The notes under the pieces are model-generated. The model ran no database searches. It had not been told where the DNA came from and saw nothing but the letters and a program-made list of their open reading frames with translations. DNA of 64,000 bases from NCBI GenBank assembly GCA_964482735.1, contig CAYZYV010000004.1, positions 65,737 to 129,736 of the forward strand, written 5' to 3'. This document shows, one piece after another, positions 4,389 to 46,556 of this stretch. The DNA is from an uncultured Candidatus Saccharibacteria bacterium. GTDB taxonomy: Bacteria > Patescibacteriota > Minisyncoccia > Phycocordibacterales > UBA9973. Within the stretch, counting starts at the first letter, position 1. Each line of letters starts with the position of its first letter. A program made the position numbers and the translations under genes.

Positions 4389-4402
4389 ATCCGCCCGTAG
4401 CT
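4389..4402 (+). repeat. 14-nt direct duplicate of the tRNA-Lys 5' end (atccgcccgtagct), 61 nt upstream of the real copy
   Basis: Identical 14-mer at 4389..4402 and 4464..4477; the second copy spans the tRNA start. Confidence 0.6.
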
Positions 4403-4465
4403 GTTTTGGTAGGTCTAAAGCTTCTACTGGTCACAGTGTTAGTTTTTGAAATAATGTTTATATAT

Positions 4466-4538
4466 CCGCCCGTAGCTCAGATGGTAGAGCAGCTCCCTTT
4501 TAAGGAGATGGTCGTAGGTTCGATTCCTACCGGGCGGA
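4466..4538 (+). tRNA. tRNA-Lys (anticodon TTT)
   Basis: Cloverleaf: acceptor CCGCCCG/CGGGCGG, D-arm GCTC-AGATGGTA-GAGC, anticodon loop CTTTTAA, T-arm GTAGG-TTCGATT-CCTAC, discriminator A. CCA is not encoded. Confidence 0.85.
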
Positions 4539-7907: not shown

Positions 7908-8843
7908 TTAGTTAAATAGTTTTTGGTGCTTATTACAAAAGTGAGCACTTCGACCATTAACGACCTTTCTTATTATACCACCATCGCAGTCTTTTTTCTT
8001 GCAAGTTGTTTTGTTGAGACGGTAGACATTGTGATGATGTTGAAAGCCACCTCTTTCTCCGTCGATATTCCGATAATCTGACATAGAATCACCGCCAAAA
8101 TTAATTCCTTTCTTAAGCACGATCTTCATGTTTTTATAAAGAAGCCCAAGTTCCTTATTCGGAATTTTAGAAACAATAGATTCTGGGTGAATACCTGATA
8201 GCCAAAGCATTTCATCTGAATATATATTTCCAATACCAACAATAACTGATTGATCCATCAGAACGGTTTTAATTTTGCCTCTTGGCTTGAGATTGAGCCT
8301 GTCTTTGAAAAGTCCAAGGTCTGTTTTTTCTTCTAGAGGTTCTGGACCAATGTTTTTTAAGTGAATAGTATTCCCCATATTTTTAGTTTCAAAAAAAGTA
8401 ATTTTACCAAATTTTCTAGAATCACAGAATGCAAGATATTTACCGTTTGATAGGCAAAAAACAAAATGAATAAATCTGTTGTAAGGATCTATAAGAGGGG
8501 ATTTAGAATCTTTTGGTTCCCAAACAATCTTCCTCCCAACAATCTTTTTAATATATTTTCCATATAGTAAATGCCCGGTCATTTTTAAATGAATAAGAAT
8601 AGTATATCCACCCGAAACATTTATTAAAATGTTTTTTGCCCTTCTCTCTACCGATAAAACCTTCTTCCCGACAATCTTCTTCCTGAATTCTTTAAAAAAA
8701 TTCTCGTCTTTAATGGTGCCTTGAAAATGTTTAATTGGCTGGTTTTTCTTAGCTAGATCAGTCCAGACATCAGTAAAACGAAGCTCAAGTAAGACTTTCT
8801 TCAATCCATTTACTGTTGTTGTTACTTCAGGTAGCTCTGGCAT
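7908..8843 (-). CDS. fpg: Formamidopyrimidine-DNA glycosylase (Fpg/MutM)
   Basis: The true start is MPELPEV at 8843 (catalytic Pro2, Glu3). A C-terminal CxxC...CxxC zinc finger is present. The ORF-track N-terminal extension was rejected. Confidence 0.85.
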   Translation of the reverse strand: MPELPEVTTTVNGLKKVLLELRFTDVWTDLAKKNQPIKHFQGTIKDENFFKEFRKKIVGKKVLSVERRAKNILINVSGGYTILIHLKMTGHLLYGKYIKKIVGRKIVWEPKDSKSPLIDPYNRFIHFVFCLSNGKYLAFCDSRKFGKITFFETKNMGNTIHLKNIGPEPLEEKTDLGLFKDRLNLKPRGKIKTVLMDQSVIVGIGNIYSDEMLWLSGIHPESIVSKIPNKELGLLYKNMKIVLKKGINFGGDSMSDYRNIDGERGGFQHHHNVYRLNKTTCKKKDCDGGIIRKVVNGRSAHFCNKHQKLFN

Positions 8844-8844
8844 G

Positions 8845-8940
8845 TATATAATATAAATATAGGTTATTAAAATTAAAAATAGCACTTCGCGTCCCGTAGT
8901 AAATTTTAAATGCATTCGATTTAAAATTTTACCTCTGGGG
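8845..8940 (+). mobile_element. 96-nt hairpin insertion element flanked by 29-bp direct duplication of the fpg 5' terminus
   Basis: ttgttgttacttcaggtagctctggcatg occurs identically at 8816..8844 and 8941..8969. The core agcacttcgcgtcccgtagtaaa...ctctgggg is about 80 percent identical to 57025..57117. Confidence 0.55.
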
Positions 8941-9010
8941 TTGTTGTTACTTCAGGTAGCTCTGGCATGGCTGATTTTTAAGGAACGAAGTGACTATAAA
9001 AATCGCCAAA

Positions 9011-9595
9011 TTACTTTCTTCCGCTACCTAGAATTTTTAGAGCCTCTTTAATACGAGCATTGGCTCCCTTTGTATCGCTTGGAATTTGTTTCAAAGCATC
9101 TCTAGCTTCATTTTGAGAATAGCCAAGAGATTTTAGCGCTTCTAGAATATCTTCTTCTTCCCTTATTTGACCATCAGAGAAACTATCGTCTTTGTATATT
9201 GCGAATTTGTCTTTAAGTTCCACAATAATTTTTTCTGCAGTTTTTCTTCCGATTCCAGAAACTTTATTAAGATAACTTGTGTCTCCTGTGGCTATTGCCC
9301 TTCTTAATATTTCTATAGGGGCTATTCCTAAAATTGCCAAAGCCGACTTGGGACCTATTCCGGAAACATCAAGCAATAATTCGTAGAAAGATAATTCGCT
9401 AGGATCTCTAAAACCATAAAGTTCAATTGCATTTTCTCGAACTGCCGTGTATGTCCAAAGAGATATTTCCTCATCTTTCTTTGAGATAGACAAAATGTCA
9501 GAAGTTGCAAAAACCTTGTAACCAACTCCGTTTACATCAACAACTAAAAATTTTTCTGATACATAATCTATGTTTCCTTTAAGTTTGGATATCAT
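9011..9595 (-). CDS. ruvA: Holliday junction DNA helicase RuvA
   Basis: 194 aa, MISKLKGNIDYVSEKFLVVDVNGVGYKV, with RuvA domains I-III. Confidence 0.85.
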   Translation of the reverse strand: MISKLKGNIDYVSEKFLVVDVNGVGYKVFATSDILSISKKDEEISLWTYTAVRENAIELYGFRDPSELSFYELLLDVSGIGPKSALAILGIAPIEILRRAIATGDTSYLNKVSGIGRKTAEKIIVELKDKFAIYKDDSFSDGQIREEEDILEALKSLGYSQNEARDALKQIPSDTKGANARIKEALKILGSGRK

Positions 9596-9807: not shown

Positions 9808-10620
9808 TTGATGAATACCAAAGGAGATTTCTGGACAAAAATATATTATAATAAAAAAGTGAAAAAGGAATCTCTAAAACCTAATAAAGCCAAAAAAGGA
9901 TTTACCCTCATTGAACTTCTTGTCGTCATCGCTATCATCGGAATACTTTCTGCTGTGGTTATTGCTTCGCTAAACAGTGCTCGAGAAAAGGGGAAGGTTG
10001 CAATGATCAAATCTACTCTCAAGAACATGCAGTCTCAAGCTGAATTAACTTACACAACAAACGGAGATTATTCTACTTTATATAACTCTTCTACCTATGA
10101 TTGTATTGGTTCATTAACTAAAATGGCAGAAAGTTTAACTAATCAAGGAGTAACGGTTAAATGCTATTCTCGTAACAGTTCGTCCCAAAACGATGTCTAC
10201 CTCCGTTTCGGTGCCACTGCTATCATATATAACACTAATAGTTTCAAAGCATGGTCTACAGACCAAAACGGAGTAGCAACTTGGGATCAAAAAGGGGTAG
10301 ACTCGACAGGTGCATATGTTGATGCAGATATTACCTCGGGTATGACATTAGCTATTTCAAACTCCGCTTGTGCTAAAGCAGGAGGAAGACTTCCATCTCT
10401 TGAACAATTGTTTACTCTTAGCAGGGCTTATTATACCGCTTCTGGAAATACATCTTACAAACCCACTAGTGTTGGTTTTAAAGCAAGTTATTACTGGTCT
10501 TCTGTGCTTTCTCCACTTCCATCTGATAATTCACAAGCATACTACGTTAACTTTGGTGCTGATACTAGTATTGGCACTAGTCCTGTTACAAATGGTGGTT
10601 ACGTTCGCTGTGTTAGATAA
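9808..10620 (+). CDS. Type IV pilin-like protein with C-terminal DGR-target-type lectin/FGE-like domain (paralog 1; no cognate TR in window)
   Basis: Prepilin motif KG-FTLIELLVVIAIIGILSAVV. The C-terminus GGRLPSLEQ...YYWSS...GGYVRCVR matches the tail of the DGR2 target. Confidence 0.7.
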   Translation: MMNTKGDFWTKIYYNKKVKKESLKPNKAKKGFTLIELLVVIAIIGILSAVVIASLNSAREKGKVAMIKSTLKNMQSQAELTYTTNGDYSTLYNSSTYDCIGSLTKMAESLTNQGVTVKCYSRNSSSQNDVYLRFGATAIIYNTNSFKAWSTDQNGVATWDQKGVDSTGAYVDADITSGMTLAISNSACAKAGGRLPSLEQLFTLSRAYYTASGNTSYKPTSVGFKASYYWSSVLSPLPSDNSQAYYVNFGADTSIGTSPVTNGGYVRCVR

Positions 10621-13230: not shown

Positions 13231-13279
13231 AAAACAGTAAGACCCAAATATCTTCATATCTGGGTCAAACTGTTTTATG
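13231..13279. terminator. Bidirectional terminator hairpin
   Basis: gtaaaacagtaa-gaccca-loop-tgggtc-aaactgtttta nested inverted repeats. Confidence 0.5.
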
Positions 13280-13280
13280 T

Positions 13281-13397
13281 GATCCCGGCAGGAATCGAAC
13301 CTGCATCATAACTTCCGCAAAGTTACGTCCTATCCCCGCCCGACTGGAACGACCACTAATCTTGTCCAGTCGTTCGGGCGGGCATTGAATGACAACG
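13281..13397 (-). pseudogene. Partial tRNA-Arg-like copy (D-arm to 3' end, lacks 5' acceptor strand) carrying a 48-nt GC hairpin insert in the D-loop
   Basis: Anticodon arm TAACT-TTGCGGA-AGTTA, T-arm GCAGG-TTCGATT-CCTGC, and 3' CGGGATC-A. Insert 13336..13383 ccgcccga...tcgttcgggcgggc. Confidence 0.5.
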
Positions 13398-13401
13398 CTT
13401 G

Positions 13402-13473
13402 TGCTCTCAGTAGGAATCGAACCTACATCATAACTTCCGCAAAGTTACGTTCTATCCATTGAACTATGAGAGC
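13402..13473 (-). tRNA. tRNA-Arg (anticodon GCG as read from the loop)
   Basis: Perfect cloverleaf on the minus strand: GCTCTCA-TA-GTTC-AATGGATA-GAAC-G-TAACT-TTGCGGA-AGTTA-TGAT-GTAGG-TTCGATT-CCTAC-TGAGAGC-A. Confidence 0.75.
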
Positions 13474-13706
13474 AACTTATTTTTTAAATATTTTCGACCA
13501 GAAGCGGTCTTCCAATATTTTTCTTTTTCTACTGCCTCTTTCAGGGTTGAACACTTTTCAAAATAAACTAAGTCAAACGGAGCATAATGCTTGTTGGACT
13601 TTGTTATTTTACTATTATGTTCAGACAGTCTCTTTTCTAGATTTGAACAGAAACCTTTATAGTAAAAGTCTAAAAATTTACTTTTTATGACATATACATA
13701 ATACAT
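13464..13706 (-). CDS. Mini GIY-YIG nuclease domain protein (80 aa)
   Basis: YVYVIKS...YYKGFCSNLEKRLSEHN is a GIY-YIG core. The start codon lies inside a partial tRNA copy and the stop overlaps the tRNA-Arg 5' end. Confidence 0.7.
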   Translation of the reverse strand: MYYVYVIKSKFLDFYYKGFCSNLEKRLSEHNSKITKSNKHYAPFDLVYFEKCSTLKEAVEKEKYWKTASGRKYLKNKLLS

Positions 13707-13783
13707 AAGTTACATCCTATTCCCGCCCGACTGGAACGACTACCAATCTCGTCCAGTCGTTCGGGCGGGCATTGAATGACTGG
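13700..13783 (-). repeat. Second partial tRNA-Arg-like fragment (D-arm to anticodon stem) with the same 48-nt hairpin insert
   Basis: agttacatcctattc + ccgcccgactggaacgactaccaatctcgtccagtcgttcgggcgggc + attgaatgac; the insert is at 13717..13764. Confidence 0.5.
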
Positions 13784-17244: not shown

Positions 17245-17345
17245 TTGTAAATTATACCTTAAATATATAATTTAAGGTATTTGAGTTTTCTGATACTTTA
17301 TTTCTTTGCGGGTCATGTGAGTTCAGTACCCACAATACTAATGTT
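17245..17345 (-). promoter_or_regulatory. Promoter/leader with near-perfect palindromic operator (accttaaatatataatttaaggt); paralog at 18156..18250
   Basis: A ~90-nt direct repeat lies upstream of two consecutive minus-strand genes and contains a TATAAT-like box overlapping a 23-bp palindrome. Confidence 0.45.
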
Positions 17346-17381
17346 AATAAGGATATCTTAGCACATTTTGAAGAATATAAA

Positions 17382-18155
17382 CTAGCCCTGTGAGTCTTGC
17401 TTATTTTCAATAAATTGTTTAAAACCCTCTATGTCTTGATTAGATCCTAATATATGAATTTGTTCTGATGAGTTAAATACTGCGATATCATCACCAAGAG
17501 TACCTTGTTCTACCACGTTTTTAATTATCGTACCATCAAACTCATTTTTTCTAGCATACTCTGCAATTTCATCAGTGGAAATATCTGACACAACAACCTC
17601 ATCAACTGTATAAAATTGTTTAGCATTCTGGTATTGTTTGGTTTTAAATATATCTGATTTTGATGAAAAATATTCTGACTTTATATCAAATTCATCAGTT
17701 GCATCTAATCCAGTTTCTTTATCAACAACCTTATACCCAACTCCCTGATAATTTGCCCCTTTAAAATCTACCTCGTAAGGATTTGTAATATCTATGATTA
17801 CTGAATATATTTTTTCACCCCCCTCATACGAAGTTCCAAGTGGAATACTTTTAAAATATTGTTTTGCTACTTCATAGTTTTTAGTAAAAAAGACAACATT
17901 ATCAGGAGTCCCATACGCTTTAGATTTTATGTCTTCAGATGTATTATCAAACTCATCAAATGTGCTAGCACTGCCATGATATACGATATCTTTTATCTTA
18001 CTCTCTGGGAAAATAGTATCTAAATATTCAGAATATTGTTCTTTTGTCCCAATTTGTACTAATTCTGGATTTTGTTCAAATACAAAATCCACACCCTCTC
18101 TAATGTTAGGTTTTTCTACTCTATTTTCTTGGGTTATTTTTGGCAATCCTTCCAT
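17382..18155 (-). CDS. Hypothetical protein
   Basis: 257-aa ORF with no confident family assignment. Confidence 0.45.
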   Translation of the reverse strand: MEGLPKITQENRVEKPNIREGVDFVFEQNPELVQIGTKEQYSEYLDTIFPESKIKDIVYHGSASTFDEFDNTSEDIKSKAYGTPDNVVFFTKNYEVAKQYFKSIPLGTSYEGGEKIYSVIIDITNPYEVDFKGANYQGVGYKVVDKETGLDATDEFDIKSEYFSSKSDIFKTKQYQNAKQFYTVDEVVVSDISTDEIAEYARKNEFDGTIIKNVVEQGTLGDDIAVFNSSEQIHILGSNQDIEGFKQFIENKQDSQG

Positions 18156-18250
18156 ATATGTAAATTATACCATAAATATATAATTTGAGATACTTGAGTC
18201 TTCCGATACTTTGTTTTTATTGCGGGGATACTCGTGTTAGGACTTTTCAC
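18156..18250 (-). promoter_or_regulatory. Second copy of the palindromic-operator promoter/leader
   Basis: About 75 percent identical to 17245..17345, including the palindrome and the -10 region. Confidence 0.45.
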
Positions 18251-18451: not shown

Positions 18452-19771
18452 ATGGAAACATATACAACAGCTAGGATTAATAAGGAAATATTGATTCAAG
18501 CACCAAAAATTAAATATGTATTGTATGCTCGTAAATCAACCGAATCAGAAGAAAGACAAGTGCTTTCTATTGATTCACAAGTTAAAGAAATGTTACAACT
18601 TGCTGAACGAGATGGTTTAGAAGTGGTTGAGATTAGAAGAGAATCACATAGTGCTAAAGAATCAGGTCAAAGACCTGTATACAGAGAAATATTAGAAGAT
18701 ATACGACGAGGTAGGTTTAATGGAATACTAACATGGGCACCAGATAGACTTTCAAGAAATGCAGGTGATTTAGGAAGTATAGTTGATTTAATGGATCAAC
18801 AATTGCTTTTAGAAATAAGAACATATGGGCAACATTTTAAGAATTCACCAAATGAAAAGTTTCTGTTAATGATTCTCTGTTCTCAGGCAAAACTTGAGAA
18901 TGATAACAAAAGTGTAAACGTAAAACGTGGATTAAGAACAAGGTGTGAAATGGGTTTGCGACCAGGAGTAGCACCAACTGGATACTTGAATGAAAAAAGA
19001 ACAGATAGGAAATGCCAAGCAATATTAGACCCAGAACGAGCACCAACTATCAAAAAGATGTTTGAGAAAGTAGCCTATGAACACTGGAGTGGGAGAAAAT
19101 TATATAACTGGCTTCGATTTGATTTAAACTTCAGAACATCTAATGGAAAGAAACATCTAAGTTTAGGCAATATATACAAGATACTAGATAATCCTTTCTA
19201 TTATGGAGTATTTGAATATCCTAAAAAATCTGGTAATTGGTATACAGGACAACACGAACCGTTAATAACAAAAGAATTATTTAACTTAGTCCAAGATCAA
19301 ATCAAAAGTAATGTGCTTCGAATTGAAAACAAAGAATTTGCCTTCACAAAAATGATGACTTGTGGACTTTGTGGATCTGGAATATCAGCCGACGAGAAGT
19401 TTAAGAAATACAAGAATGGAACTATTACAAGATATGTATATTATGGTTGTACTAAAGCTAGAGGTACCGACTGTAAATGTGGTTATACCGAAGAAAAAAA
19501 TATTCTCAAACAATTTGAGGAGTTAATTGAAAAAATAGATCTCAACGAGATCCAAATAAAAGAAAAAATAAAAGCTGATGTTGAAAAGTTCTCTAAAATG
19601 CAAAATTTCTTTTTAGGGACAAAAGAAAAACCCAAAATATCAAATATTGATATTCGAGGATATGCTAGATATGTATTGAAGGAAGGGAGTGATGTTGAGA
19701 AAAGAGAATTGTTGGGGTGTTTGAAAAGCAGGATATTGTTGAACAATAAGAAAATATCACTTTTGAGATAA
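18452..19771 (+). CDS. Large serine recombinase (phage-type integrase)
   Basis: N-terminal resolvase catalytic motif VLYARKSTESEERQVLSIDSQ, a recombinase domain, and a zinc ribbon CGLCGS...YYGCTKARGTDCKCGY. Confidence 0.85.
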   Translation: METYTTARINKEILIQAPKIKYVLYARKSTESEERQVLSIDSQVKEMLQLAERDGLEVVEIRRESHSAKESGQRPVYREILEDIRRGRFNGILTWAPDRLSRNAGDLGSIVDLMDQQLLLEIRTYGQHFKNSPNEKFLLMILCSQAKLENDNKSVNVKRGLRTRCEMGLRPGVAPTGYLNEKRTDRKCQAILDPERAPTIKKMFEKVAYEHWSGRKLYNWLRFDLNFRTSNGKKHLSLGNIYKILDNPFYYGVFEYPKKSGNWYTGQHEPLITKELFNLVQDQIKSNVLRIENKEFAFTKMMTCGLCGSGISADEKFKKYKNGTITRYVYYGCTKARGTDCKCGYTEEKNILKQFEELIEKIDLNEIQIKEKIKADVEKFSKMQNFFLGTKEKPKISNIDIRGYARYVLKEGSDVEKRELLGCLKSRILLNNKKISLLR

Positions 19772-22037: not shown

Positions 22038-22556
22038 CTATTTTGGTGTTTTTTTCAAGATACCCCTATTTTTTAATATATGTTCCTCGTAATGGCAGTT
22101 GGGGCAAAGAATTTCTAGATTTTCTTCTTTATTATCGTTTCTCTTCCTGTTTTTATGATGAATTTGTAGAATGCTTTGATTGCTGTATCCGCAACGTTCG
22201 CAAACCACCCCTCTCTTTTTAAACAATTTTATTTTTAGAGATCTTGCCTTTTTTGCGAGATCTTTTGGTCTACCAATTTTATAATTTATTCCTGTGCGAT
22301 ATATATTGGCGCACTTTCTACTACAAGTTTTCTTGTTTAAGCCAGACAAAATTGGGACACCACACACAAGACAGGGAATCTCTTTTCTACAATATATTCC
22401 ATAACATTTTTGACTACAGAATACAGTTCCATTTTTAATTTGGCCAGGTCTCCGATATATCTTCTTGTGACATATCTGACAAATGGTATTTGGTTTTCTA
22501 ATATATAATTCTTTCACTAATCCAGTATACCAAAAAAGTCTAGAATAATAAAACAC
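22038..22556 (-). CDS. HNH endonuclease (Cys-rich, probable homing-type) adjacent to tRNA-Ser
   Basis: C-terminal CERCGY...LQIHHKNRKRNDN...LEILCPNCH HNH motif, with multiple CxxC pairs upstream. Confidence 0.7.
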   Translation of the reverse strand: MFYYSRLFWYTGLVKELYIRKPNTICQICHKKIYRRPGQIKNGTVFCSQKCYGIYCRKEIPCLVCGVPILSGLNKKTCSRKCANIYRTGINYKIGRPKDLAKKARSLKIKLFKKRGVVCERCGYSNQSILQIHHKNRKRNDNKEENLEILCPNCHYEEHILKNRGILKKTPK

Positions 22557-26705: not shown

Positions 26706-26737
26706 AAAGAAGTTTATCTGCTTTTTGCAATTTGTGC

Positions 26738-26765
26738 CCCCGCGAGGAATCGAACATTACATGTT
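26738..26765 (-). repeat. Duplicated 3' fragment of tRNA-Arg(TCT) (T-loop plus acceptor 3' strand)
   Basis: gtgcccccgcgaggaatcgaac repeats 26879..26901 exactly, and no upstream tRNA body accompanies it. Confidence 0.5.
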
Positions 26766-26875
26766 CAGTGCAGGTTATTGATATTTTATTTCGCTAGCTC
26801 ATAAAATATCTAATTAACCTTTTCGATTCCTTGGACCACAAAAAAATTACCGGCATAAAACCGATAATTTTTTCA

Positions 26876-26950
26876 TGGTGCCCCCGCGAGGAATCGAACC
26901 TCGAATAACGGCTTAGAAGTCCGCAGTTATATCCATTTAACTACAGGGGC
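26876..26950 (-). tRNA. tRNA-Arg (anticodon TCT), CCA encoded
   Basis: Acceptor GCCCCTG/CGGGGGC, anticodon loop CTTCTAA, T-arm CGAGG-TTCGATT-CCTCG, 3' ACCA. Confidence 0.75.
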
Positions 26951-26967: not shown

Positions 26968-27040
26968 TGCGCGGTAAGAGACTTGAACTCCTGACCTTCC
27001 CGGTGTAAACGGGTTGCTCTACCAACTGAGCTAACCGCGC
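26968..27040 (-). tRNA. tRNA-Val (anticodon TAC)
   Basis: GCGCGGT-TA-GCTC-AGTTGGTA-GAGC...TTTACAC...TTCAAGT...ACCGCGC-A cloverleaf. Confidence 0.85.
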
Positions 27041-27083
27041 ATTTTTTGTATTATTATTTAAACCAACGATATTATGTGTTTCT

Positions 27084-27115
27084 CACGGGTCGCTACAACT
27101 GAGCTAACCGCGCGT
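27084..27115 (-). repeat. Duplicated 5' fragment of tRNA-Val (acceptor plus D-arm)
   Basis: gggtcgctacaactgagctaaccgcgcg resembles tRNA-Val positions 1-30, with no matching 3' half. Confidence 0.45.
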
Positions 27116-27181
27116 TATTTTGTTGGTAATTGAATCATATCATATTTTCAAAAAAACTCAATAATGTGCTAGGATGTCGTT

Positions 27182-28509: not shown

Positions 28510-29184
28510 ATGGTAAAGAGAGGACCAAAGCCAAAAGCAATAATAAGTACAAAATGGACTTCTGGTTTAGCCTATGCGATTGGGTTGCTTGCAACAGACG
28601 GTTACTTATCAAAAGATGGACTTCTTGTAGATTTGACCTCCAAAGACAAAGAACAGTTAATGAATTTTTCTAAATGTGTAGGTTTTAATTTTAAAATAGG
28701 GGAAAAAATAAACGGTAAAGGTAATAAGAATTTAAGAATTCAATTTAAAAATAGGATTTTCTATGATTTTCTTTTGTCTATTGGATTATCACCAAAAAAG
28801 TCTTTGACTATTAGTAAGGTAAAAGTACCAGATAAGTATTTCTTCGACTTTTTGAGGGGGTGTTTTGATGGTGATGGGTCATTTTATTCTTATTGGGACA
28901 AAAGGTGGTGCTCGAGTTATATGTTTTATCTAGAATTTACTTCTGGTAGTATTGAATACATTAATTGGCTAAGGGAAGAATTAAGAAAAAGACTTGGAGT
29001 AAAAGGACATATTACACATAGTAAACTAGGAAATACCCACAATTTAAAATACGCAAAAAAAGAATCCCTAGAAGTAATTAAAAATATGTATTATAATCCA
29101 AAGGTTGTTTGCTTGTCTCGGAAAAAAGAAAAAATAAAAAAGGTTCTTAAACAAGAAAAACAACAACAAAAAAATAATAAATAA
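28510..29184 (+). CDS. LAGLIDADG homing endonuclease (two-motif, free-standing) immediately upstream of tRNA-Leu
   Basis: Two LAGLIDADG-like motifs, AIGLLATDGYL and FLRGCFDGDGSF, and a basic C-terminus. Confidence 0.65.
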   Translation: MVKRGPKPKAIISTKWTSGLAYAIGLLATDGYLSKDGLLVDLTSKDKEQLMNFSKCVGFNFKIGEKINGKGNKNLRIQFKNRIFYDFLLSIGLSPKKSLTISKVKVPDKYFFDFLRGCFDGDGSFYSYWDKRWCSSYMFYLEFTSGSIEYINWLREELRKRLGVKGHITHSKLGNTHNLKYAKKESLEVIKNMYYNPKVVCLSRKKEKIKKVLKQEKQQQKNNK

Positions 29185-32143: not shown

Positions 32144-32216
32144 GGTGCCTATAGTGTAATGGTTAGCACAAGAGTCTGTGGATCTCTTAGTCAGAGTTCG
32201 AGTCTCTGTAGGCACC
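32144..32216 (+). tRNA. tRNA-His (anticodon GTG) with encoded G-1
   Basis: The extra 5' G pairs with discriminator C. Anticodon loop CTGTGGA, T-arm CAGAG-TTCGAGT-CTCTG. Confidence 0.8.
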
Positions 32217-32253
32217 CACACCTATATTTTTATAGTCGTAAATCATATATAAT

Positions 32254-32514
32254 ATGTATATGTTTTATTTCTATGTGTTAAAAAGTAAAAAAGATAATAA
32301 TTTGTATTTTGGCTCTACAAATAATTTACGACGCAGGCTTTTAGACCACAACAGTGGTAAAGTAAACTCTACTCGTCCTAGATTACCATTTGAGCTTAAA
32401 TATTATGAAGCTTATTCTAATGAAAATGATGCCAGAAAGAGAGAAGCTTCAATTAAGAAAGATGGTCGAGCTTTATCTGTGTTACGGAAAAGAATAAGCC
32501 AAAGCCTGCAATAA
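32254..32514 (+). CDS. Mini GIY-YIG nuclease domain protein (86 aa) inserted at the 3' flank of tRNA-His
   Basis: FYFYVLKS...YFGSTNNLRRRLLDHN GIY-YIG core. It is flanked by a 12-nt duplicate of the tRNA-His 3' end (tgtaggcaccca at 32205..32216 and 32530..32541) and by the inverted cccacacc/ggtgtggg motif. Confidence 0.7.
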   Translation: MYMFYFYVLKSKKDNNLYFGSTNNLRRRLLDHNSGKVNSTRPRLPFELKYYEAYSNENDARKREASIKKDGRALSVLRKRISQSLQ

Positions 32515-33309: not shown

Positions 33310-33909
33310 ATGAAATACAATGATTTTACCCTAGGACAAATTGAAGCAGTTTTAAACAAACTAGGTGGAATAGAAGGCGTAATGGACTTTCTTTCTGGCA
33401 AAACTATTGTGAAGGTTCCATCGGATGAAAAAACCTTGTTCAATGTATGGAAAACTATTAAACTCGGCAATTACAAAAATGCCGATGAGTTTCGTAAGGC
33501 ACTCAAAAAAAATGGTTTCAAAACCGGCGACTGGGCAAACGACATCCTCGACAAACCCGCATTTACAGTAGCTGGAGCAGAAGAAGAAATCCAGTTGGTG
33601 AATGTTTCAGTAGCTGACCTTGGTTTCAAAAACGGTGCCACTTACAAGGGTATCTGTGCTAAAGCCAAAGAACTTGGCTTGGAACTTTGTCCCAATGAAG
33701 TCGGTCCACAATTGCGTTTGCAATACAAAGACCAGCCCAAGGGCGAACACCTGTGTATTGCAATGGAACCAATTACCGACTCGTTTGGCAACCTCAGCAT
33801 CTTCCACGTTGGACACGATGACGATGTTTTGTGGCTCTATGGCTACTATGGCTATTCTGTCCCTTTCTGGAGTGCTTACTACCGTTTTGTTTTCCGTCTT
33901 CGCAAGTAG
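33310..33909 (+). CDS. DGR1 variable (target) protein; C-terminal variable region
   Basis: The last 136 nt (VR1, 33772..33907) match TR1 with about 17 mismatches, all but one of which lie at TR adenines. Confidence 0.75.
   Translation: MKYNDFTLGQIEAVLNKLGGIEGVMDFLSGKTIVKVPSDEKTLFNVWKTIKLGNYKNADEFRKALKKNGFKTGDWANDILDKPAFTVAGAEEEIQLVNVSVADLGFKNGATYKGICAKAKELGLELCPNEVGPQLRLQYKDQPKGEHLCIAMEPITDSFGNLSIFHVGHDDDVLWLYGYYGYSVPFWSAYYRFVFRLRK
33772..33907 (+). repeat. DGR1 variable repeat (VR1)
   Basis: Aligned to TR1 34267..34402. TR A maps to VR G/C/T at about 16 sites, including AAC-type codons. Confidence 0.8.
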
Positions 33910-34266
33910 CACTTGGACCTTGTTTACTTTGGTCTCTTTTGACCCTTTGGACTTTGTCCTTAAAAAAGTTTTTGAAGTATCACACAACCTCTATGACCCC
34001 TGTATAATTAAAAAAACAGGGGTTATTTTTTTGTGCTAAAATAAATATGGTAGTAGGTGAATATGTGGAAGATTAAGGTTTTCCGCTACCGAACCCAGTA
34101 TCCATACATCGAGAGTATTTGCGACCACGGTTTCAAATAGAGTGATGTATGTAGAAACTTCAAAAAATGAAGATACTTGGTGTAGAAAGCTGGGTGATTT
34201 TATATCACGAATAAGGTTCAACCCCGAGAGTATTCAAAGGGTGGTGGGTTAGATGGCTTACTATAC

Positions 34267-34402
34267 ATTACCGACTCGGATGGCAACCTCAACATCTTCA
34301 ACGTTGAACACGATGACGATGATTTGTGGCTCAATGGCAACAATGGCAATTCTGTCAATTTCTGGAATGCTAACAACCGTTTTGTTTTCCGTCTTCGCAA
34401 AT
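34267..34402 (+). repeat. DGR1 template repeat (TR1)
   Basis: Noncoding 136-nt copy of VR1 that keeps adenines where VR1 varies. Confidence 0.8.
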
Positions 34403-34424
34403 CTTTTCATTTCTCTCTCACTAT

Positions 34425-34748
34425 TTATTTGGGAGAGTTTTGTTTTATAAGTTGTCCATTCCAACCACCAAGTATTTTGCCTATCTCATCTATCCCTGCA
34501 GAAAGAGTAATATATTTTTTATCATCTAATGCTTTAATTTCCCATAGAACCATCAAAAGTATTTTTAAGGTGTCTGTTTTTCTTATCGCTAGTCGGACCC
34601 ACGGAGGTTTTTCTTCTCTAGATAAAAAACTAGCAATAGAAATTGCTTCTATAATTTCCACAAAGATAGTATCAATTTTTTGTCCTAGAGAGTGTTTGTG
34701 TATTTTAGGCAGAGTTTGGTAAAAAGTAATCCAAATTAGATAAGTCAT
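34425..34748 (-). CDS. avd: DGR accessory variability determinant (Avd-like four-helix-bundle protein), divergent from RT1
   Basis: 107 aa from the internal Met. The C-terminal GIDEIGKILGGW resembles the bAvd EVGRILGSW region. It lies between TR1 and RT1. Confidence 0.6.
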   Translation of the reverse strand: MTYLIWITFYQTLPKIHKHSLGQKIDTIFVEIIEAISIASFLSREEKPPWVRLAIRKTDTLKILLMVLWEIKALDDKKYITLSAGIDEIGKILGGWNGQLIKQNSPK

Positions 34749-34776
34749 TTTTGCTTTTGCCAGTAGGGGCAAAAGC

Positions 34777-34787
34777 GGGGGGGGGGG
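34777..34787. repeat. G11 homopolymer in the 52-nt avd1/RT1 divergent intergenic region
   Basis: ggggggggggg sits 14 nt upstream of the RT1 ATG and 29 nt upstream of the avd1 ATG, and it is unusual in an AT-rich genome. Confidence 0.7.
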
Positions 34788-34800
34788 TAAAATCATTACT

Positions 34801-35805
34801 ATGTCTCGTATACAATTTAGTCATACATATCAATATATCATTTCTACTGAAAATCTCCTCCTTGCTTGGAAGGAGTTTTTGAAAGGCAAAAAATCAAGGA
34901 AAGATGTTTTAGAGTTTGAAAGAAACTTGATGACTAATATCTTAAAACTTCACAGCGAACTCTCAAATAAAACATATAAACATTCTGATTACCAAGCATT
35001 TGATATATCTGACCCTAAACCACGAAGCATACATAAAGCAAAAGTGCGGGACAGATTACTTCATCACGCACTCTATCGCGAACTTTATCCATTTTTTGAT
35101 AGAACATTTATAGCCGACTCATATTCTTGTAGGAAAAATAAGGGAACGCATAAAGCAATGCGGAGGTTTCGGGTGTTTTCAAATAAAGTATCAAAAAACA
35201 ATACAAAAACTTGCTGGGTTTTGAAGGGTGATATACGAAAGTTTTTTGGGTCAATAGACCAGGAAATACTTGTTGAAATAATTAAAGAATATATTTATGA
35301 TAAAGATATAATTTCGTTATTATTTGAAATTATTGTAAGTTTCCAATCTACAAAAAAAGATGTTGGGTTACCTCTTGGCAATTTAACATCACAAATACTT
35401 GTGAACATTTATATGAATGAGTTTGACCAGTTTGTAAAACATAAACTAAAAGCAAAATACTATATTCGTTATGCCGATGATTTTGTTATTATGTCTGACA
35501 AAAAAGAATGGCTTGAAAACTTATTGCCACAAGTAGCAATTTTTCTTGAGATACGGCTCAAATTATTGCTTCATCCAGACAAGGTTTTTATAAAAACTCT
35601 TGTCTCTGGAGTTGATTTTCTCGGGTGGGTCCATTTTCCCGACCATCGGATAGTAAGAACCATAACTAAACGCAGAATGTTAAAACATATTAGACAAAGG
35701 GAAGGCAAAAAAGAAACGGTCCAGTCCTGTCTTGGGCTCTTAAGCCACGGTAATGCGAAGAAACTTTCTAACTCAATAACTATGAAATATGTAATTGAAA
35801 AATAA
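34801..35805 (+). CDS. DGR reverse transcriptase (RT1)
   Basis: RT motifs with the DGR-typical LPLGNLTSQ (SQ rather than QG) and YADD (RYADDFVI). Only 334 aa, with no maturase or endonuclease domains. Confidence 0.85.
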   Translation: MSRIQFSHTYQYIISTENLLLAWKEFLKGKKSRKDVLEFERNLMTNILKLHSELSNKTYKHSDYQAFDISDPKPRSIHKAKVRDRLLHHALYRELYPFFDRTFIADSYSCRKNKGTHKAMRRFRVFSNKVSKNNTKTCWVLKGDIRKFFGSIDQEILVEIIKEYIYDKDIISLLFEIIVSFQSTKKDVGLPLGNLTSQILVNIYMNEFDQFVKHKLKAKYYIRYADDFVIMSDKKEWLENLLPQVAIFLEIRLKLLLHPDKVFIKTLVSGVDFLGWVHFPDHRIVRTITKRRMLKHIRQREGKKETVQSCLGLLSHGNAKKLSNSITMKYVIEK

Positions 35806-42591: not shown

Positions 42592-42645
42592 AACAGCCGA
42601 GGTCGGACCTCGTACGAGGTCCGACCTCGGCTGTTATCCACAGGT
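42592..42645. repeat. GC-rich REP-like perfect palindrome (44 bp) plus conserved atccacaggt tail; second copy at 62584..62654
   Basis: aacagccgaggtcggacctcgtacgaggtccgacctcggctgtt is a perfect inverted repeat. Confidence 0.6.
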
Positions 42646-42804: not shown

Positions 42805-43593
42805 GTGAAAAACAAACTCTTAAAATCAGATAATAAAACTACAGGGTTCACTTTAATTGAACTCTTAGTCGTTATCGCAATCATTGGAATTTTATCAGCC
42901 GTAGTTGTCGCTTCGCTAAACAGTGCAAGAGAGAAAGGAAAGATTGCTTCTATTAAATCCACCTTAAAACAACTATATAACCAAGCAGCCATCAATCAAG
43001 CAGAATATGGTAGTTTTGCAAACTCTAATACATCATATTCAGATTTAACTTGTACAGGCCCAGGAGGTAATCTAGCTAAAATAGCTCAACCACTCATTGA
43101 TCAAGGAATTATAGTTAAATGCTTTAGTTTTAATAGTCCGGCATCTGGAGATTTGTCCCTTCGCTTTGCTGCAACCGCTCTTATATATGATACAAATGAA
43201 CTCAAAGCATGGTCAGTAGATGAAAACGGTGTAGTTAAATGGGATACTCATGGAGTTAATACTGATGGGACAACAAGATCAACAGATATAACCATGGCAT
43301 GGAAGGACCTAAATGATATCACTATAGCTATGAACGCTTGTGCGAAAAATGGTGGTCGTCTTCCTTCTGTGGAACAATTTCGAACCCTGTTTCATTCATG
43401 GTACTCATCTACTGGCAATGTGTCATATCTTCCAATACCAACAGAAGGTTCTTTTTCAAATGGTTACTACTGGTCATCAACTTCTGTACCGCTTTGGCCA
43501 GAGACTAGATCATATTCTTTGATCACAGAGAGCTCAAATATAGGATTCTCTGGTTCGTTGAGTTCTGGTTATTATGTCCGTTGTGTTAGATAA
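42805..43593 (+). CDS. Type IV pilin-like protein with C-terminal lectin/FGE-like DGR-target-type domain (paralog 2; no cognate TR found)
   Basis: GFTLIELLVVIAIIGILSAVV prepilin motif; C-terminal GGRLPSVEQ...YYWSS...GYYVRCVR. Confidence 0.7.
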   Translation: MKNKLLKSDNKTTGFTLIELLVVIAIIGILSAVVVASLNSAREKGKIASIKSTLKQLYNQAAINQAEYGSFANSNTSYSDLTCTGPGGNLAKIAQPLIDQGIIVKCFSFNSPASGDLSLRFAATALIYDTNELKAWSVDENGVVKWDTHGVNTDGTTRSTDITMAWKDLNDITIAMNACAKNGGRLPSVEQFRTLFHSWYSSTGNVSYLPIPTEGSFSNGYYWSSTSVPLWPETRSYSLITESSNIGFSGSLSSGYYVRCVR

Positions 43594-43673: not shown

Positions 43674-43979
43674 TTAGTATTCTGGGACTAGATGAATATG
43701 AAAATGAGGGACATCTTTACCTATGACTTTAACTTTTACAAATTCGCATTTTTTATCATTGATTAGTTTTTGCATTAGTTTTTTTGCAACAACAAAAGCT
43801 TCACCCAGTAATTCATCTGGAGCATCTTGCATCCAAACGTAATGATCTTTGGGAATGATTAGCGTGTGTCCATCGCTCTCGGGATTGATATCAAGAAAAG
43901 CGAAGAATTTCTCATCCTCATAAACCTTTGTGCTAGGAATTTCTCCTTGTGCAATTTTACAAAAAATACATTTATCCAT
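43674..43979 (-). CDS. HIT-family (histidine triad) hydrolase
   Basis: Start at the internal Met MDKCIFCKI; histidine triad HFHIHLVP. Confidence 0.75.
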   Translation of the reverse strand: MDKCIFCKIAQGEIPSTKVYEDEKFFAFLDINPESDGHTLIIPKDHYVWMQDAPDELLGEAFVVAKKLMQKLINDKKCEFVKVKVIGKDVPHFHIHLVPEY

Positions 43980-44007
43980 ATTTCTATTATATGTTACAAT
44001 CAAGAAT

Positions 44008-45756: not shown

Positions 45757-46536
45757 TTGTATAATAAAACTATGATTAAGAATTATAAAAACACTAATAA
45801 TGCCTTTACTCTCATCGAACTCCTCGTCGTCGTCGCAATCATCGGAATACTCTCCTCAGTAGTCATCACATCACTAAACTCTGCAAGAGAAAAGAGCAAG
45901 ATTGCTTCTATTAAATCCACCTTAAAACAACTATACAACCAAGCTGCCATCAATCAAGTAGAAAATGGTAGTTTTACTGGATCTAATCCTTCATATTCAA
46001 ACTTAACCTGTTCTGGCAACTTAGCTCCAATAATTAAACCACTAGAAGACCAGGGAATAATAGTTAAATGCTTTAGTTTCTATGGAAGTCCCTATGGAGG
46101 AAATTATACAGGAGACGATTATAACAGATTCGCCGCCACGGCCCTCATCTACGACACAGGAGAACTCAAAGCATGGTCTGTAGATGAAAACGGTGTAGTT
46201 AAATGGGATACACAAGGAGTAAACTCAACAGGAGCTTTTGTTACCCCTGACATTACAGCCTCATGGACTAATGCTCAAAACAGATGTGCTTTATCTGGTG
46301 GACGTCTCCCTTCTATTGAACAATTGAGAACTCTATCTCATGCATGGTATTCTAAAGCTAATACTGATGGAGATGTAGACCCTTGGGCACCTCTTGGTTT
46401 CGTAGCAAGCATCTACTGGTCTTCTACCCCCGTTCCGTCGTCGCCTACTACGCTCGCTTACGGCCAGATCATGGCCTATGGTAGCTTGACCTCCTACAGT
46501 CAGACTCTCGGGTACTATGTTCGCTGTGTTAGGTAG
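45757..46536 (+). CDS. DGR2 variable (target) protein: type IV pilin-like N-terminus plus C-terminal lectin/FGE-like domain carrying VR2
   Basis: AFTLIELLVVVAIIGILSSVV prepilin motif, and a C-terminal ...YWSSTPVPSSPTTLAYGQIMAYGSLTSYSQTLGYYVRCVR encoded by VR2. Confidence 0.8.
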   Translation: MYNKTMIKNYKNTNNAFTLIELLVVVAIIGILSSVVITSLNSAREKSKIASIKSTLKQLYNQAAINQVENGSFTGSNPSYSNLTCSGNLAPIIKPLEDQGIIVKCFSFYGSPYGGNYTGDDYNRFAATALIYDTGELKAWSVDENGVVKWDTQGVNSTGAFVTPDITASWTNAQNRCALSGGRLPSIEQLRTLSHAWYSKANTDGDVDPWAPLGFVASIYWSSTPVPSSPTTLAYGQIMAYGSLTSYSQTLGYYVRCVR

Positions 46537-46556
46537 TAGTGTGTTCGCCTAGAATT
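46391..46556 (+). repeat. DGR2 variable repeat (VR2), which extends 20 nt past the stop codon (IMH-like region)
   Basis: The 166-nt alignment to TR2 has 19 mismatches, and every one of them is at a TR adenine. Confidence 0.85.

Follow-up and report, generated by a model that had tools for sequence, protein, structure and literature searches.

A 125-nt hairpin-bearing DNA unit lies inside the first codons of the fpg gene of a tiny CPR bacterium and carries a second copy of the start of that gene. It belongs to a widespread and apparently undescribed family of fixed-length insertions, represented by about 50 related copies in Paceibacteria/Parcubacteria genomes and metagenomes, that leave the genes they interrupt intact. 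A hairpin of 43-50 nt and its 3' flank are conserved in this family. What varies is the length of the flanking repeat (11-69 nt); what does not is the distance from the 3' foot of the hairpin to the end of the gene-side repeat, which is most often 78-79 nt. How such units arise is inferred, and the interpretation offered below is tentative.

Anatomy of the fpg and fusA units

The window (the whole 64,000-nucleotide stretch of DNA analysed) contains two copies of the unit. The first-pass annotation had described a 29-bp perfect repeat, at 8816-8844 and 8941-8969, around a 96-nt hairpin element at the fpg start codon, and the observation is real: the 29-mer occurs exactly twice, with 0 matches expected by chance. 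Exact extension makes the repeat 30 nt (8815-8844 and 8940-8969, period 125), with 95 non-duplicated nt between the copies. The insertion point is after nt +29 of fpg rather than at the start codon; it is the repeat that begins 1 nt before the ATG. Only about 60-66 nt of the element as originally delimited are conserved in the family.

All parts of the fpg unit are read on the minus strand. The gene itself (7908-8843; formamidopyrimidine-DNA glycosylase, 311 aa, with Fapy_DNA_glyco and H2TH domains, PF01149 and PF06831) is intact, with its ATG at 8843. The outer or decoy copy of the fpg start (D, 8940-8969) comprises 1 nt, the ATG, the first 9 codons and an A, is contiguous with the native ruvA-fpg spacer, and opens the mini-ORF MPELPEVTTTPEVKF, which stops inside the hairpin (base 8940 is shared, or ambiguous, with the first C of the hairpin). 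The conserved hairpin (8893-8939; CCCAGAGGTAAAATTTTAAATCGAATGCATTTAAAATTTACTACGGG) has a conserved stem base and loop (TCGAATGCA) and an upper stem that covaries; it is hit by the family covariance model at 82.2 bits. Its 3' flank (8883-8892; ACGCGAAGTG, family consensus GCGAGAAGTG) is conserved. There follows an AT-rich, locus-specific spacer (the distal part of the tail, T; 8845-8882), orthologous in all fpg alleles of the clade and without similarity to the tails of other genes, and then the copy of the fpg start that is contiguous with the gene (D', 8815-8844), which ends at the invariant A, 78 nt after the 3' foot of the hairpin. The native spacer upstream of the decoy (U, 8970-9010) is 40/41 identical between lineages whose D differs at 7/29 positions, and contains TTTATA-N15-TAAAAAT about 6 nt before the decoy ATG (by inference alone, possibly a promoter for a leaderless transcript).

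At the other end of a gene, the fusA copy has the same period of 125. The last 33 nt of fusA including the TAG stop (D', 56992-57024, plus strand) are contiguous with the gene and are repeated at 57117-57149 (D, plus strand), contiguous with the native terminator (about 57165-57197). The 92 non-duplicated nt (57025-57116, minus strand) are a locus-specific tail (57025-57059), the conserved flank (57060-57069) and the hairpin (57070-57116/7), with a covariance-model hit of 85.4 bits at 57056-57118. The CCCCAG strand is antisense to fusA, so that the tail faces the gene body. The 58-nt cores of the two units are 50/58 (86%) identical, rather than about 80% as first estimated. A covariance-model search of the whole window finds only these two copies; the marginal hits are an rpmB terminator and a chance hairpin.

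Neither structure is an assembly error. Independent assemblies (Logan SRR10083296, SRR10083310 and SRR10083292, and JGI Ga0209099) carry the identical structure, at least five from different pipelines agree, and the same architecture occurs at about 50 loci in many genomes. Short exact repeats can mislead de Bruijn assemblers, and some Logan contigs do break exactly at the fusA repeat, but an artefact is effectively excluded for the occupied alleles.

A family with constant geometry

The first-pass annotation had proposed as a test that every copy should be flanked by a duplicated gene terminus, and in the approximately 50 copies collected by genome and metagenome scans this came out largely positive. 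(L-numbers below denote individual copies, alleles or lineages in this collection.) The copies lie immediately 3' of an A: the A at position -2 carries 1.9 bits, the reconstructed target A is present in 24/24 target families, and it is never at a third codon position (frames 9/7/0 in 16 gene families). The period is 121-128 nt, and period minus hairpin is 76-81 nt (mode 78-79) while the repeat ranges from 11 to 69 nt, the lengths of tail and repeat being anticorrelated so that their sum is constant. The rule holds when the hairpin is 43, 44, 45 or 50 nt long, and at both gene ends. The repeat starts at the ORF boundary: -7..0 nt from the ATG in 22/25 non-internal units at 5' ends, and -11..+2 nt around the first base of the stop codon (that is, within about 11 nt of the ORF end) at 3' ends. 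One tRNA 5' end is also hit. (The same boundary rule at stop codons in antisense orientation led to abandonment of the idea that the repeat starts at a transcription start site.) Copies without an obvious repeat (L034, L044, L047, L036) have no adjacent enzyme gene.

The hairpin is under structural selection: 7 of 19 pairs show compensatory changes, and 98.4% of cells are paired vs 87% in shuffles (0/500). (The stem base was part of the search pattern, and its invariance is therefore partly due to ascertainment.) Nearly identical upper stems occur at unrelated genes in different metagenomes. In the flank, positions +1..+10 carry 1.0-2.0 bits in 47 copies, but there is no conservation beyond about +20 and no in-register similarity between tails of different genes; the AT-rich tail is locus-specific and not element-borne. 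The tail resembles the native flank of the same gene (rpsT, z = 2.7-3.2) and is weakly similar in register to the sequence left of the decoy (36.5 vs 32.5%, p = 0.003). Stop-codon-rich motifs to the left of many decoys (TAATTATTAATT, CTAGCTACTAG) are general intergenic sequence and not part of the element.

Together with the TTTACT of the hairpin's 3' arm, the conserved flank and the following TGCTATTTT resemble an extended -10 promoter facing fpg. In the family, 15/47 copies match at least 5/6 of the -10 hexamer vs 4/47 in the control, and TTTACT-N16/17-TATAAT with TG occurs in L015, L029, L035 and L037. The fpg copy in the window is weak (TTTACT-N16-TATTTT with TG, 8/12) and is not called by the promoter scanner. 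The hexamers of at least 5/6 lie in copies assigned here to 5' ends, while four 3'-end copies (L020, L022, L031, L064) score 4/6 or less. The resemblance to a promoter rests on sequence alone.

No known RNA family or IS matches the unit. Rfam returns no hit at gathering thresholds in the window and only noise (E > 1) in a permissive local scan, and viral contigs, annotated phages and plasmids contain no copies (only one chance AT-rich match). The hairpin is not an intrinsic terminator: the scanner finds none in 8700-9100, and no T-run follows the hairpin on either strand. Literature searches found no description of the family.

Divergence and copy-number variation

In the window, D and D' are identical (30/30 at fpg and 33/33 at fusA), but in many other loci they differ, and mostly at synonymous sites: 38 synonymous vs 14 non-synonymous codon differences, 43/72 nucleotide differences at third positions, and Ser/Arg/Leu six-fold codon switches. 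Some of these changes are multi-step, so the two copies are not simple copies of one another. Both have been shaped by coding selection. The decoy of L079 shares six lineage-specific synonymous variants with its own gene, and D = D' exactly, including lineage-specific variants, in the window, L079, L053 and L062.

Near-identical strains carry 0, 1 or 2 units. In an empty allele (L067) the fusA stop runs straight into the native terminator, exactly 125 nt shorter. This single empty allele comes from a k=31 assembly and the repeat is 33 nt, so that an assembly skip is not fully excluded; moreover, it is on the same fusA haplotype as an occupied allele and could be a secondary precise deletion, so that it cannot be taken as proof that the tail is foreign. 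A two-unit fpg allele with different hairpins but the same tail and repeat appears in two independent assemblies, and tandem arrays occur in L047 and L063. At the fpg site the unit is ancient and not a recent hop: T is orthologous across lineages with at least 20% Fpg divergence.

Interpretation

The reading of the repeat in the first-pass annotation is only partly supported. A repeated hairpin-bearing insertion, shared with fusA, flanked by a duplicated gene terminus, leaving the gene intact and creating a decoy mini-ORF, is borne out; that the repeat is a long target-site duplication typical of one transposase is not supported. The fpg feature is best seen as one unit of a family of about 125-nt non-autonomous insertion units in Paceibacteria, each consisting of the conserved hairpin, a conserved flank of 10-20 nt (GCGAGAAGTG plus a -10-like hexamer), a locus-specific stretch that looks like the gene's own flank, and a copy of the gene's terminus. 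In this view the unit lies immediately 3' of the invariant A, 11-69 nt inside a gene's start or end and with its tail facing the gene body; the resident terminus is left behind as a decoy, and the gene reads on from the copy carried on the unit.

The anatomy, the invariant A, the constant distance, the ORF-boundary rule, the 0/1/2-unit polymorphism, the covariation of the hairpin and the synonymous-type divergence of the two copies are regarded as demonstrated. The mechanism is inferred: a hypothetical hairpin-recognizing strand-cutting and joining activity, supplied in trans, would cut at the 5' foot of the hairpin and after an A about 78-79 nt downstream, freeing hairpin, flank and gene terminus as a fixed-length unit. 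The unit would be pasted after the cognate A of a homologous gene copy lacking it (homing between alleles or lineages) or directly behind itself (tandem arrays), and recombination or slippage between the two terminus copies would then delete units, expand arrays and keep decoy and real copies alike. At 5' ends the hairpin arm and flank would probably also act as an outward promoter. This explanation is preferred to each alternative, but only tentatively. No candidate enzyme was found: the window ORFs scanned encode no Y1/HUH or DDE transposase, and no copy has an adjacent candidate gene. No free or circular intermediate can be seen in assemblies, and no precedent for a 78-79-nt ruler is known to us. 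Alleles with the hairpin near a gene end but no decoy (a donor state) are not cleanly demonstrated, since L005, L009, L003 and L082 may simply have lost or decayed their decoys. Because T is vertically conserved at fpg, present-day mobility may be only recombination between repeats, and exact identity of D and D' in lineages in which U and T are unrelated needs an extra homogenizing step.

Three other readings are each considered unlikely. A classical small transposon or MITE consisting of hairpin plus AT-rich tail, with a target-site duplication made by staggered cuts (the first-pass annotation too read the repeat as a target duplication, though one far longer than the footprints of known IS or MITE families), accounts for direct repeats of target sequence flanking foreign DNA, for occupied and empty fusA alleles that differ by exactly the element plus one repeat, and for exact identity of D and D', as a duplication of the target's own sequence would give; it sits poorly with a repeat of variable length that begins at an ORF boundary, with the constant sum of tail and repeat, with unrelated tails, with multi-step synonymous differences, with the lack of terminal inverted repeats, and with the failure to find a transposase among the window ORFs scanned or next to any copy. 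Alternatively, only the hairpin (plus about 10 nt) might be mobile, inserting with a ruler-measured target duplication of about 68-79 nt, as CRISPR repeats are duplicated at spacer acquisition, the copies having since diverged outside the coding part. This would explain the constant distance, the flank-like, locus-specific tail, the weak in-register similarity of U and T (L048 shows 50% vs 29%) and the two-unit fpg allele with different hairpins but near-identical tail and repeat. However, no single unit shows a duplication extending through the tail, and where D = D' exactly the adjacent U and T are unrelated, with a sharp boundary at the ORF edge, although any process homogenizing D should also homogenize adjacent identical non-coding sequence; the combinations of hairpin and T variants in the window, L074 and L079 are equally explained by recombination between alleles.

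It is also possible, though again unlikely, that the hairpin and flank are not mobile now but form a conserved regulatory module (promoter, insulator, or RNA- or protein-binding hairpin) inherited vertically at many housekeeping genes, with decoys, arrays and empty alleles arising by local slippage and unequal recombination. The same genes (rpsT, clpB, clpP, uvrB, tsaD, efp, atpG, fusA, fpg) are occupied at the same nucleotide in divergent genomes, the orthology of T, the structural selection on the hairpin and the distribution of -10-like hexamers are compatible with such a role, and the 0/1/2-unit polymorphism needs only repeat recombination. What is not explained is how the decoy arose at more than 15 different genes with the same geometry, the same invariant A and the same distance, and why antisense-oriented copies exist at 3' ends, where a promoter is of no obvious use. 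Nearly identical upper stems occur at unrelated genes in different metagenomes, and nested hairpin insertions after A|CCCC exist. Less likely still is a translational device (uORF, attenuator or ribosome-bypass signal). The decoy ORF does start with the gene's own initiation region and stops in or just after the hairpin in most copies, only two of three entry frames are used, and a hairpin directly after the matched sequence is reminiscent of T4 gene 60; but the real copy has its own start codon, decoys have decayed or lost their ATG in several lineages (L005, L009, L046, L052) without loss of the unit, and the same unit occurs antisense at 3' ends and at a tRNA gene.

A bolder reading, which remains doubtful, is that this is a previously unrecognized class of mobile DNA, excised or copied by a molecular ruler and so always carrying a piece of its host gene's flank and terminus, which it would use both as homology and as a replacement gene end in homing into the same gene in other genomes: in effect, a miniature, enzyme-less integrative element that swaps promoters and gene termini among Paceibacteria, possibly riding on natural transformation.

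CPR/Patescibacteria have very small genomes in which mobile DNA is poorly charted, and this family hits the termini of core housekeeping genes (rpsT, fusA, efp, atpG, clpP, clpB, uvrB, tsaD, nusG, fpg, a tRNA) without inactivating them. The fixed geometry implies a measuring step that no described transposase, integrase or repair pathway is known to perform. If the unit really carries a surrogate gene end and flank between lineages, it would be a minimal system for exchanging promoters and gene termini, a natural source of decoy uORFs and copy-number-variable leaders, and a handle for finding the hairpin-specific enzyme. In practical terms, the units create false N-terminal extensions in gene calls (Fpg was called as 325- and 335-aa proteins in public data) and break assemblies at the repeats.

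Comparison with known systems

MITEs with regulatory cargo (Neisseria Correia, enterobacterial ERIC/127-bp repeat units; PMC2229807, PMC2759123) are likewise repeats of about 100-150 nt with palindromic structure, found at many loci and able to supply promoters. MITEs have terminal inverted repeats and a short duplication of fixed length (for example TA), neither of which is found here: the reverse complement of the conserved 3' motif occurs upstream only at the fpg locus of the window (4/54 copies including chance hits), where the CACTTCG upstream of the decoy is specific to that locus, and the only palindrome is the internal hairpin. REP/REPIN elements mobilized by RAYT (IS200-like Y1) transposases are short non-autonomous palindromic repeats close to or overlapping gene ends, with discrete stem sub-families showing complementary changes, and are recognized as single-stranded hairpins by an enzyme acting in trans, the RAYT, whose gene is often flanked by REPs. 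GTAG-tagged REPs are 20-40 bp palindromes with an unpaired terminal GTAG, and are not reported with flanking duplications (the word does not occur in PMC3733652) or from CPR. On its plus strand the stem base of the present unit reads CCCGTAGTAAA, which contains GTAG, but in a bulged region inside a CCCC/GGGG clamp; the hairpin is 43-50 nt, every unit brings a fixed 78-79-nt appendix, and no Y1_Tnp domain was seen among the window ORFs scanned.

IS200/IS605 single-strand "peel and paste" transposition shares hairpin recognition, insertion 3' of a short specific target (here an A), lack of terminal inverted repeats and strand-specific orientation, but those elements have sub-terminal hairpins at both ends, make no duplication, and have ends defined by sequence and not by distance; here there is one hairpin per unit and a flanking repeat. 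In integron attC sites an inverse core RYYYAAC and a core GTTRRRY pair at the base of the hairpin; the left junction here is (A)AC in many copies, but there is no complementary GTT at the other foot, where the flank is GCGAGAAGTG. In CRISPR arrays, Cas1-Cas2 duplicates a fixed-length segment next to the insertion point with a molecular ruler and arrays have a constant period; here arrays repeat the same tail and gene end, there are no unique spacers, it is the hairpin that varies, the period is 125 nt, and no cas genes are found among the window ORFs scanned. Targets of diversity-generating retroelements show adenine-specific differences between two repeats, with an RT-linked template repeat. 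Two diversity-generating retroelements with A-to-N TR/VR pairs do lie in the window, but their hairpins differ, D and D' are identical here despite many adenines and show no adenine mutagenesis, and elsewhere D and D' differ mostly at third codon positions.

Rolling-circle transposons (IS91/ISCR, Helitrons; PMC4778049) have one hairpin-marked end and capture and co-mobilize adjacent host sequence, but the transduced segments are of variable length and not gene-restoring, and insertion is not into the homologous gene. Integrative elements that insert into gene ends (tRNA/tmRNA and protein-gene termini) carry a surrogate gene end: the identity block runs from the crossover point to the gene boundary, as it does here from the invariant A at 5' ends, 3' ends and a tRNA, the gene is restored by the copy on the element, the displaced resident end remains as a remnant, and the two copies can differ as orthologues do. 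Those elements are kilobases long, encode their own integrase and use one att sequence, whereas the present unit is about 125 nt and encodes nothing, its "att" differs for each gene, and its length is fixed.

Duplicated gene ends at fpg and fusA

The 29-nt sequence reported in the first-pass annotation to be perfectly duplicated at the fpg start occurs exactly twice in the window (8816-8844 and 8941-8969), against none expected in shuffles, and that observation is confirmed. Exact extension lengthens the repeat to 30 nt (8815-8844 and 8940-8969), with a period of 125 and 95 nt in between. The fpg gene lies on the minus strand, with its ATG at 8843 and its ORF spanning 7908-8843 (311 aa). The copy of the repeat next to ruvA (9011-9595) opens the mini-ORF MPELPEVTTTPEVKF*. 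Read-through from inside the hairpin/tail generates spurious, N-terminally extended Fpg gene calls, both in public data (protein calls P0007, 325 aa, and P0008, 335 aa) and in the mechanical ORF list of the window (ORF 7908-8915).

The fusA copy is also real and has the same layout: its 33-nt repeat (56992-57024 and 57117-57149) ends exactly on the fusA stop codon, also with period 125, and the two 58-nt cores are 50/58 identical. Three Logan assemblies and one JGI assembly carry the identical fpg structure, and three JGI assemblies carry the fusA structure; assembly error is therefore excluded. A covariance model built from the family finds only these two copies in the 64-kb window (85 and 82 bits; the next best hit, at 16 bits, is noise). 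Rfam has no match.

A family of related units

Scanning a genome collection and metagenomes with core patterns returned about 50 distinct copies, from Paceibacterota, Parcubacteria and Patescibacteria MAGs and related metagenomes; a relaxed pattern added further stem variants. Viral contigs, phage records and plasmids contain none. Read on the CCCCAG strand, every unit is laid out as U - D - hairpin - T - D' - gene, in which D is a copy of a gene terminus contiguous with the outside flank U, and D' is the copy contiguous with the gene body (although the decoy copy D has decayed or is missing in some relatives, as described below). The tail, T, always faces the gene.

The targets are core genes, hit at the same nucleotide in different genomes: rpsT, a clpB-like gene, clpP, uvrB, tsaD, efp, atpG, nusG, a typA/lepA-like GTPase, fpg and a tRNA at their 5' ends, and fusA, secF and ychF at their 3' ends, where the unit is antisense. 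Tandem arrays of 2-3 units with a 125-127-nt period are found in L047 (three loci), L063 and L074/L076 (here and below, L numbers label the contigs or copies compared). In L047 the arrays sit at two paralogous genes for a hydrophobic peptide of about 25-30 aa (MISAIMFNILI...).

Conserved sequence and structure

In 47 distinct copies, the base two positions before CCCAG is A (1.9 bits) and the next is C (1.6 bits). The 43-50-nt hairpin and GCGAGAAGTG (1.0-2.0 bits) follow, then a weaker gTAAtaT. Beyond about +20 there is no conservation.

The upper stem of the hairpin covaries: 7 of 19 pairs show compensatory changes, 98.4% of cells are paired against 87% in shuffles (0/500), and the covariation score is 0.266 against 0.078 in shuffles and at most 0.061 for slid partners. 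The loop TCGAATGCA is conserved and was not part of the search pattern. (The stem base, in contrast, was part of the pattern, so that its invariance is partly due to ascertainment.) G.U-type and C.A-type mismatches are equally frequent (6 vs 5 cells, as tallied from the pair-type counts). There is thus no sign of a strand-specific RNA, and a DNA substrate (single-strand or cruciform) is at least as likely.

Reconstructed target sites have one invariant feature, an A immediately 5' of the insertion (24/24 families), usually followed by a pyrimidine. For 5'-end copies this A is never a third codon position (entry frames 9/7/0 in 16 gene families, P about 0.005); it therefore lies only where coding constraint preserves it.

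At the family level, the 3' arm of the hairpin together with the flank resembles an extended -10 promoter facing the gene. At least 5/6 of the -10 is matched in 15/47 copies, against 4/47 in the control; on the end assignments made here these lie at 5'-end copies, and four 3'-end copies score 4/6 or less. The window copies are weak, and a promoter scan calls nothing.

Unit length and the boundaries of the repeat

Repeat length varies from 11 to 69 nt between loci. The distance from the 3' foot of the hairpin to the end of D' is nevertheless 76-81 nt (mode 78-79) in 30 of 31 well-scored copies, the exception being the truncated L014. This gives periods of 121-128 nt that track hairpin length (44 nt gives 121; 50 nt gives 128). 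The rule also holds for 3'-end copies and for relaxed-pattern copies. Tail length and repeat length are therefore anticorrelated, which no fixed-stagger transposase would produce.

The repeat starts -7..0 nt from the ATG in 22 of 25 non-internal units at 5' ends, and the three exceptions are alignment breaks at mismatches just after the ATG. At 3' ends it starts -11..+2 nt relative to the first base of the stop codon, and at the tRNA it starts 2 nt before the gene.

The locus-specific tail and the two gene-end copies

Tails of different genes show no in-register similarity beyond +20 (0.35 vs 0.33-0.37 and 0.41 vs 0.40-0.43 for shifted controls). The distal part of T is therefore not a shared element tail. 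It is, however, conserved among orthologous occupied sites, as seen in an alignment of fpg alleles and at rpsT and fusA. In the case of rpsT it resembles the native upstream region of the window's own unoccupied rpsT (z = 2.7-3.2 in 3 of 4 loci), whereas the sequence left of the decoy does not. Across loci, the sequence left of D and distal T are weakly but significantly similar in register (36.5 vs 32.5%, Wilcoxon p = 0.003). Distal T thus behaves like a version of the gene's own flank, carried next to the hairpin.

In the window, D and D' are identical. Elsewhere, among 52 codons that differ, 38 are synonymous and 14 are not, and 43 of 72 nucleotide differences lie at third positions; there are multi-step synonymous switches (AGT/TCA, AGC/TCC, CGG/AGA, CTT/TTA). 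A decaying pseudo-copy would not look like this: both copies bear the imprint of coding selection. On the other hand, some decoys have clearly decayed or lost their ATG (L005, L009, L046, L052), so the decoy is not indispensable. In L079 the decoy shares six lineage-specific synonymous variants with its own gene, and short rpsT decoys (11-13 nt) also track their genes (L053, L062). Decoy and gene copy are therefore re-copied or homogenised within lineages.

Variation at the fusA and fpg sites

In contig L067 the fusA stop runs directly into the terminator, exactly 125 nt shorter than in the window, L064, L065 and L066, and L067 shares the fusA SNP haplotype of the occupied L064. This is a precise gain or loss on one genetic background, with the qualifications that the assembly used k=31 whereas the repeat is 33 nt, and that the allele may also be a secondary deletion between the repeats (so that it does not prove T to be foreign).

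At fpg, strains with identical RuvA carry either one unit (window, L001, L002, L028, L077) or two tandem units (L074 from ENA and L076 from Logan). In the two-unit allele T and D are nearly the same in both units, but the hairpins have unrelated upper stems. More distant relatives show further states. L078 has a decoy differing from its gene at four third-codon positions. L079 has an h2-type hairpin with a 29-nt mini-hairpin (CCCCGTAGTAAAGCAAAGCTTACTACGGG) nested in its loop (L079 about 667-700), again after an A|CCCC junction; in L003 (about 702-735) and L082 the mini-hairpin stands alone in place of the large hairpin and there is no decoy. L005 and L009 have a large hairpin with a decayed or replaced left flank. 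T is orthologous in all of them. The unit at fpg is therefore older than at least 20% Fpg divergence, while hairpins and tail variants reassort.

The 41-nt ruvA-fpg spacer left of the decoy (8970-9010) is 40/41 identical between lineages (compared with L078 and L079) whose adjacent coding sequences differ by about 20-25%; either it is constrained (perhaps as a promoter for a leaderless transcript) or it has been exchanged recently. In L078 (about 296-480) a larger hairpin element of about 170 nt with similar feet (CCCAGTTCCATAATTT ... AAATTATGGAACGGG) lies between ruvA and the spacer, and only its 5'-arm remnant (GTTCCATAATTTA) survives in relatives (L003, L005, L082). This suggests a superfamily of elements with CCCAG...CGGG feet.

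Other repeats and mobile-DNA features of the window

Small stand-alone GIY-YIG ORFs sit next to tRNA genes (13279-13780 and 32145-32514). ORF 13464-13706(-) lies between tRNA-Arg (13401-13473) and a partial tRNA copy (13707-13780), and a neighbouring low-scoring tRNA-Arg (13279-13350) and the partial copy both carry a GC palindrome (CCCGCCCGACTGGAACGAC...GTCGTTCGGGCGGG); ORF 32254-32514(+) follows tRNA-His. This looks like another kind of gene-end-duplicating mobile element. Further duplications of tRNA gene ends, with other intervening sequences and other periods, involve the tRNA-Lys 5' end (4389-4487; 83% identity, 75 nt apart), the tRNA-Arg(tct) 3' end (26734-26899; 22 nt exact, 144 nt apart) and the tRNA-Val 5' end plus upstream sequence (27023-27146; 73 nt apart); they are not members of the hairpin family. 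GC-rich palindromic repeats (CGAGGTCGGACCTCGTACGAGGTCCGACCTCG...) at 42598-42645 and 62590-62654, in an otherwise 34% GC window, are a different repeat family.

The window also holds a complete diversity-generating retroelement (45757-48411). Its target is a pilin-like Lcl_C gene (45757-46536) with its VR at about 46391-46556, followed by bAvd (46636-47076), the TR at about 47136-47301 (A-to-N differences) and the RT (47338-48411). A GC hairpin TCCCGAC..GTCGGGA lies downstream of the VR, and paralogous pilin/Lcl_C genes lie at 9808-10620 and 42805-43593. A second such retroelement (33310-35805) has its VR at about 33772-33905, at the 3' end of ORF 33310-33909, its TR at about 34267-34400 and its RT at 34801-35805 (RVT_1). 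Other hallmarks of mobile DNA are a large serine recombinase (18452-19771), an HNH endonuclease next to tRNA-Ser (22038-22556), a LAGLIDADG protein next to tRNA-Leu (28510-29184), and 58-nt direct repeats (88% identity; 17246-18216) flanking an ART-PolyVal gene (17382-18155). ComEC (Competence and metallo-beta-lactamase domains, called here as two ORFs) and RecJ (49104-51306, 43930-45726) are encoded alongside several type IV pilin genes. This is the machinery for DNA uptake, which could be relevant to spread of the units between lineages.

Mechanism

The element is real, widespread and unusual, and its description rests on solid ground; its mechanism, in contrast, is inferred and unproven. 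Any model must explain a constant inserted length, an invariant A, a repeat bounded by the ORF edge, a flank-like locus-specific tail, coding-type divergence between the copies, and 0/1/2-unit polymorphism. The model favored here, tentatively and at less than even confidence, is a hairpin-anchored, ruler-delimited unit. In this view, a trans-acting activity would cut at the 5' foot of the hairpin and after an A 78-79 nt downstream, freeing a unit that consists of hairpin, adjacent flank and gene terminus. The unit would be pasted after the cognate A of a homologous gene (homing) or behind itself (arrays), and recombination or slippage between D and D' would then remove units, expand arrays and homogenise the copies. 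The model accounts for the ORF-edge boundary, because only the coding part is shared between donor and recipient, and also for the synonymous differences. Its weak points are that no enzyme was found (there is no Y1/HUH or DDE transposase among the window ORFs scanned, although the window does encode ComEC, type IV pilins, RecJ, RuvX, HNH, small GIY-YIG proteins and two reverse transcriptases), that no intermediate has been seen, that a clean donor state has not been demonstrated, and that the ruler has no known precedent.

The alternatives each leave some of these features unexplained. A classical target duplication fails on the constant sum of tail and repeat, on the boundary rule and on the tails. 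Insertion of the hairpin alone with a fixed duplication of about 68-79 nt, followed by decay, explains the ruler but not the sharp boundary next to perfectly identical repeats, while a purely vertical regulatory module does not explain how the same geometry arose at more than 15 genes. The interpretation offered in the first-pass annotation, a hairpin insertion element flanked by an unusually long target duplication, is partly supported.

Relation to known systems

Full-text searches of the literature found no description of such units, a limited search that is not proof of absence. The defining features of the nearest analogues were examined where possible, and none of these systems is matched fully. 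GTAG-tagged REP/REPIN elements moved by RAYT transposases are hairpins recognised as single strands, and GTAG is present at the stem base of the present hairpin, although there it lies in a bulged region enclosed by a CCCC/GGGG clamp; however, REPs are 20-40 bp and are not reported with flanking duplications or from CPR (PMC3733652). Integrative elements that carry a surrogate gene end follow the same logic, but differ in scale and encode an integrase. Promoter-bearing MITEs, IS200/IS605 single-strand transposition (insertion 3' of a short motif), CRISPR repeat duplication by a ruler, and Helitron/IS91 flank transduction are the other analogues. Small non-autonomous hairpin repeats and gene-end-restoring insertions are both known, and the unit is ranked here with them. 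What may be new is the ruler-delimited, surrogate-end-carrying unit, and there is a substantial chance that this constitutes a class of its own.
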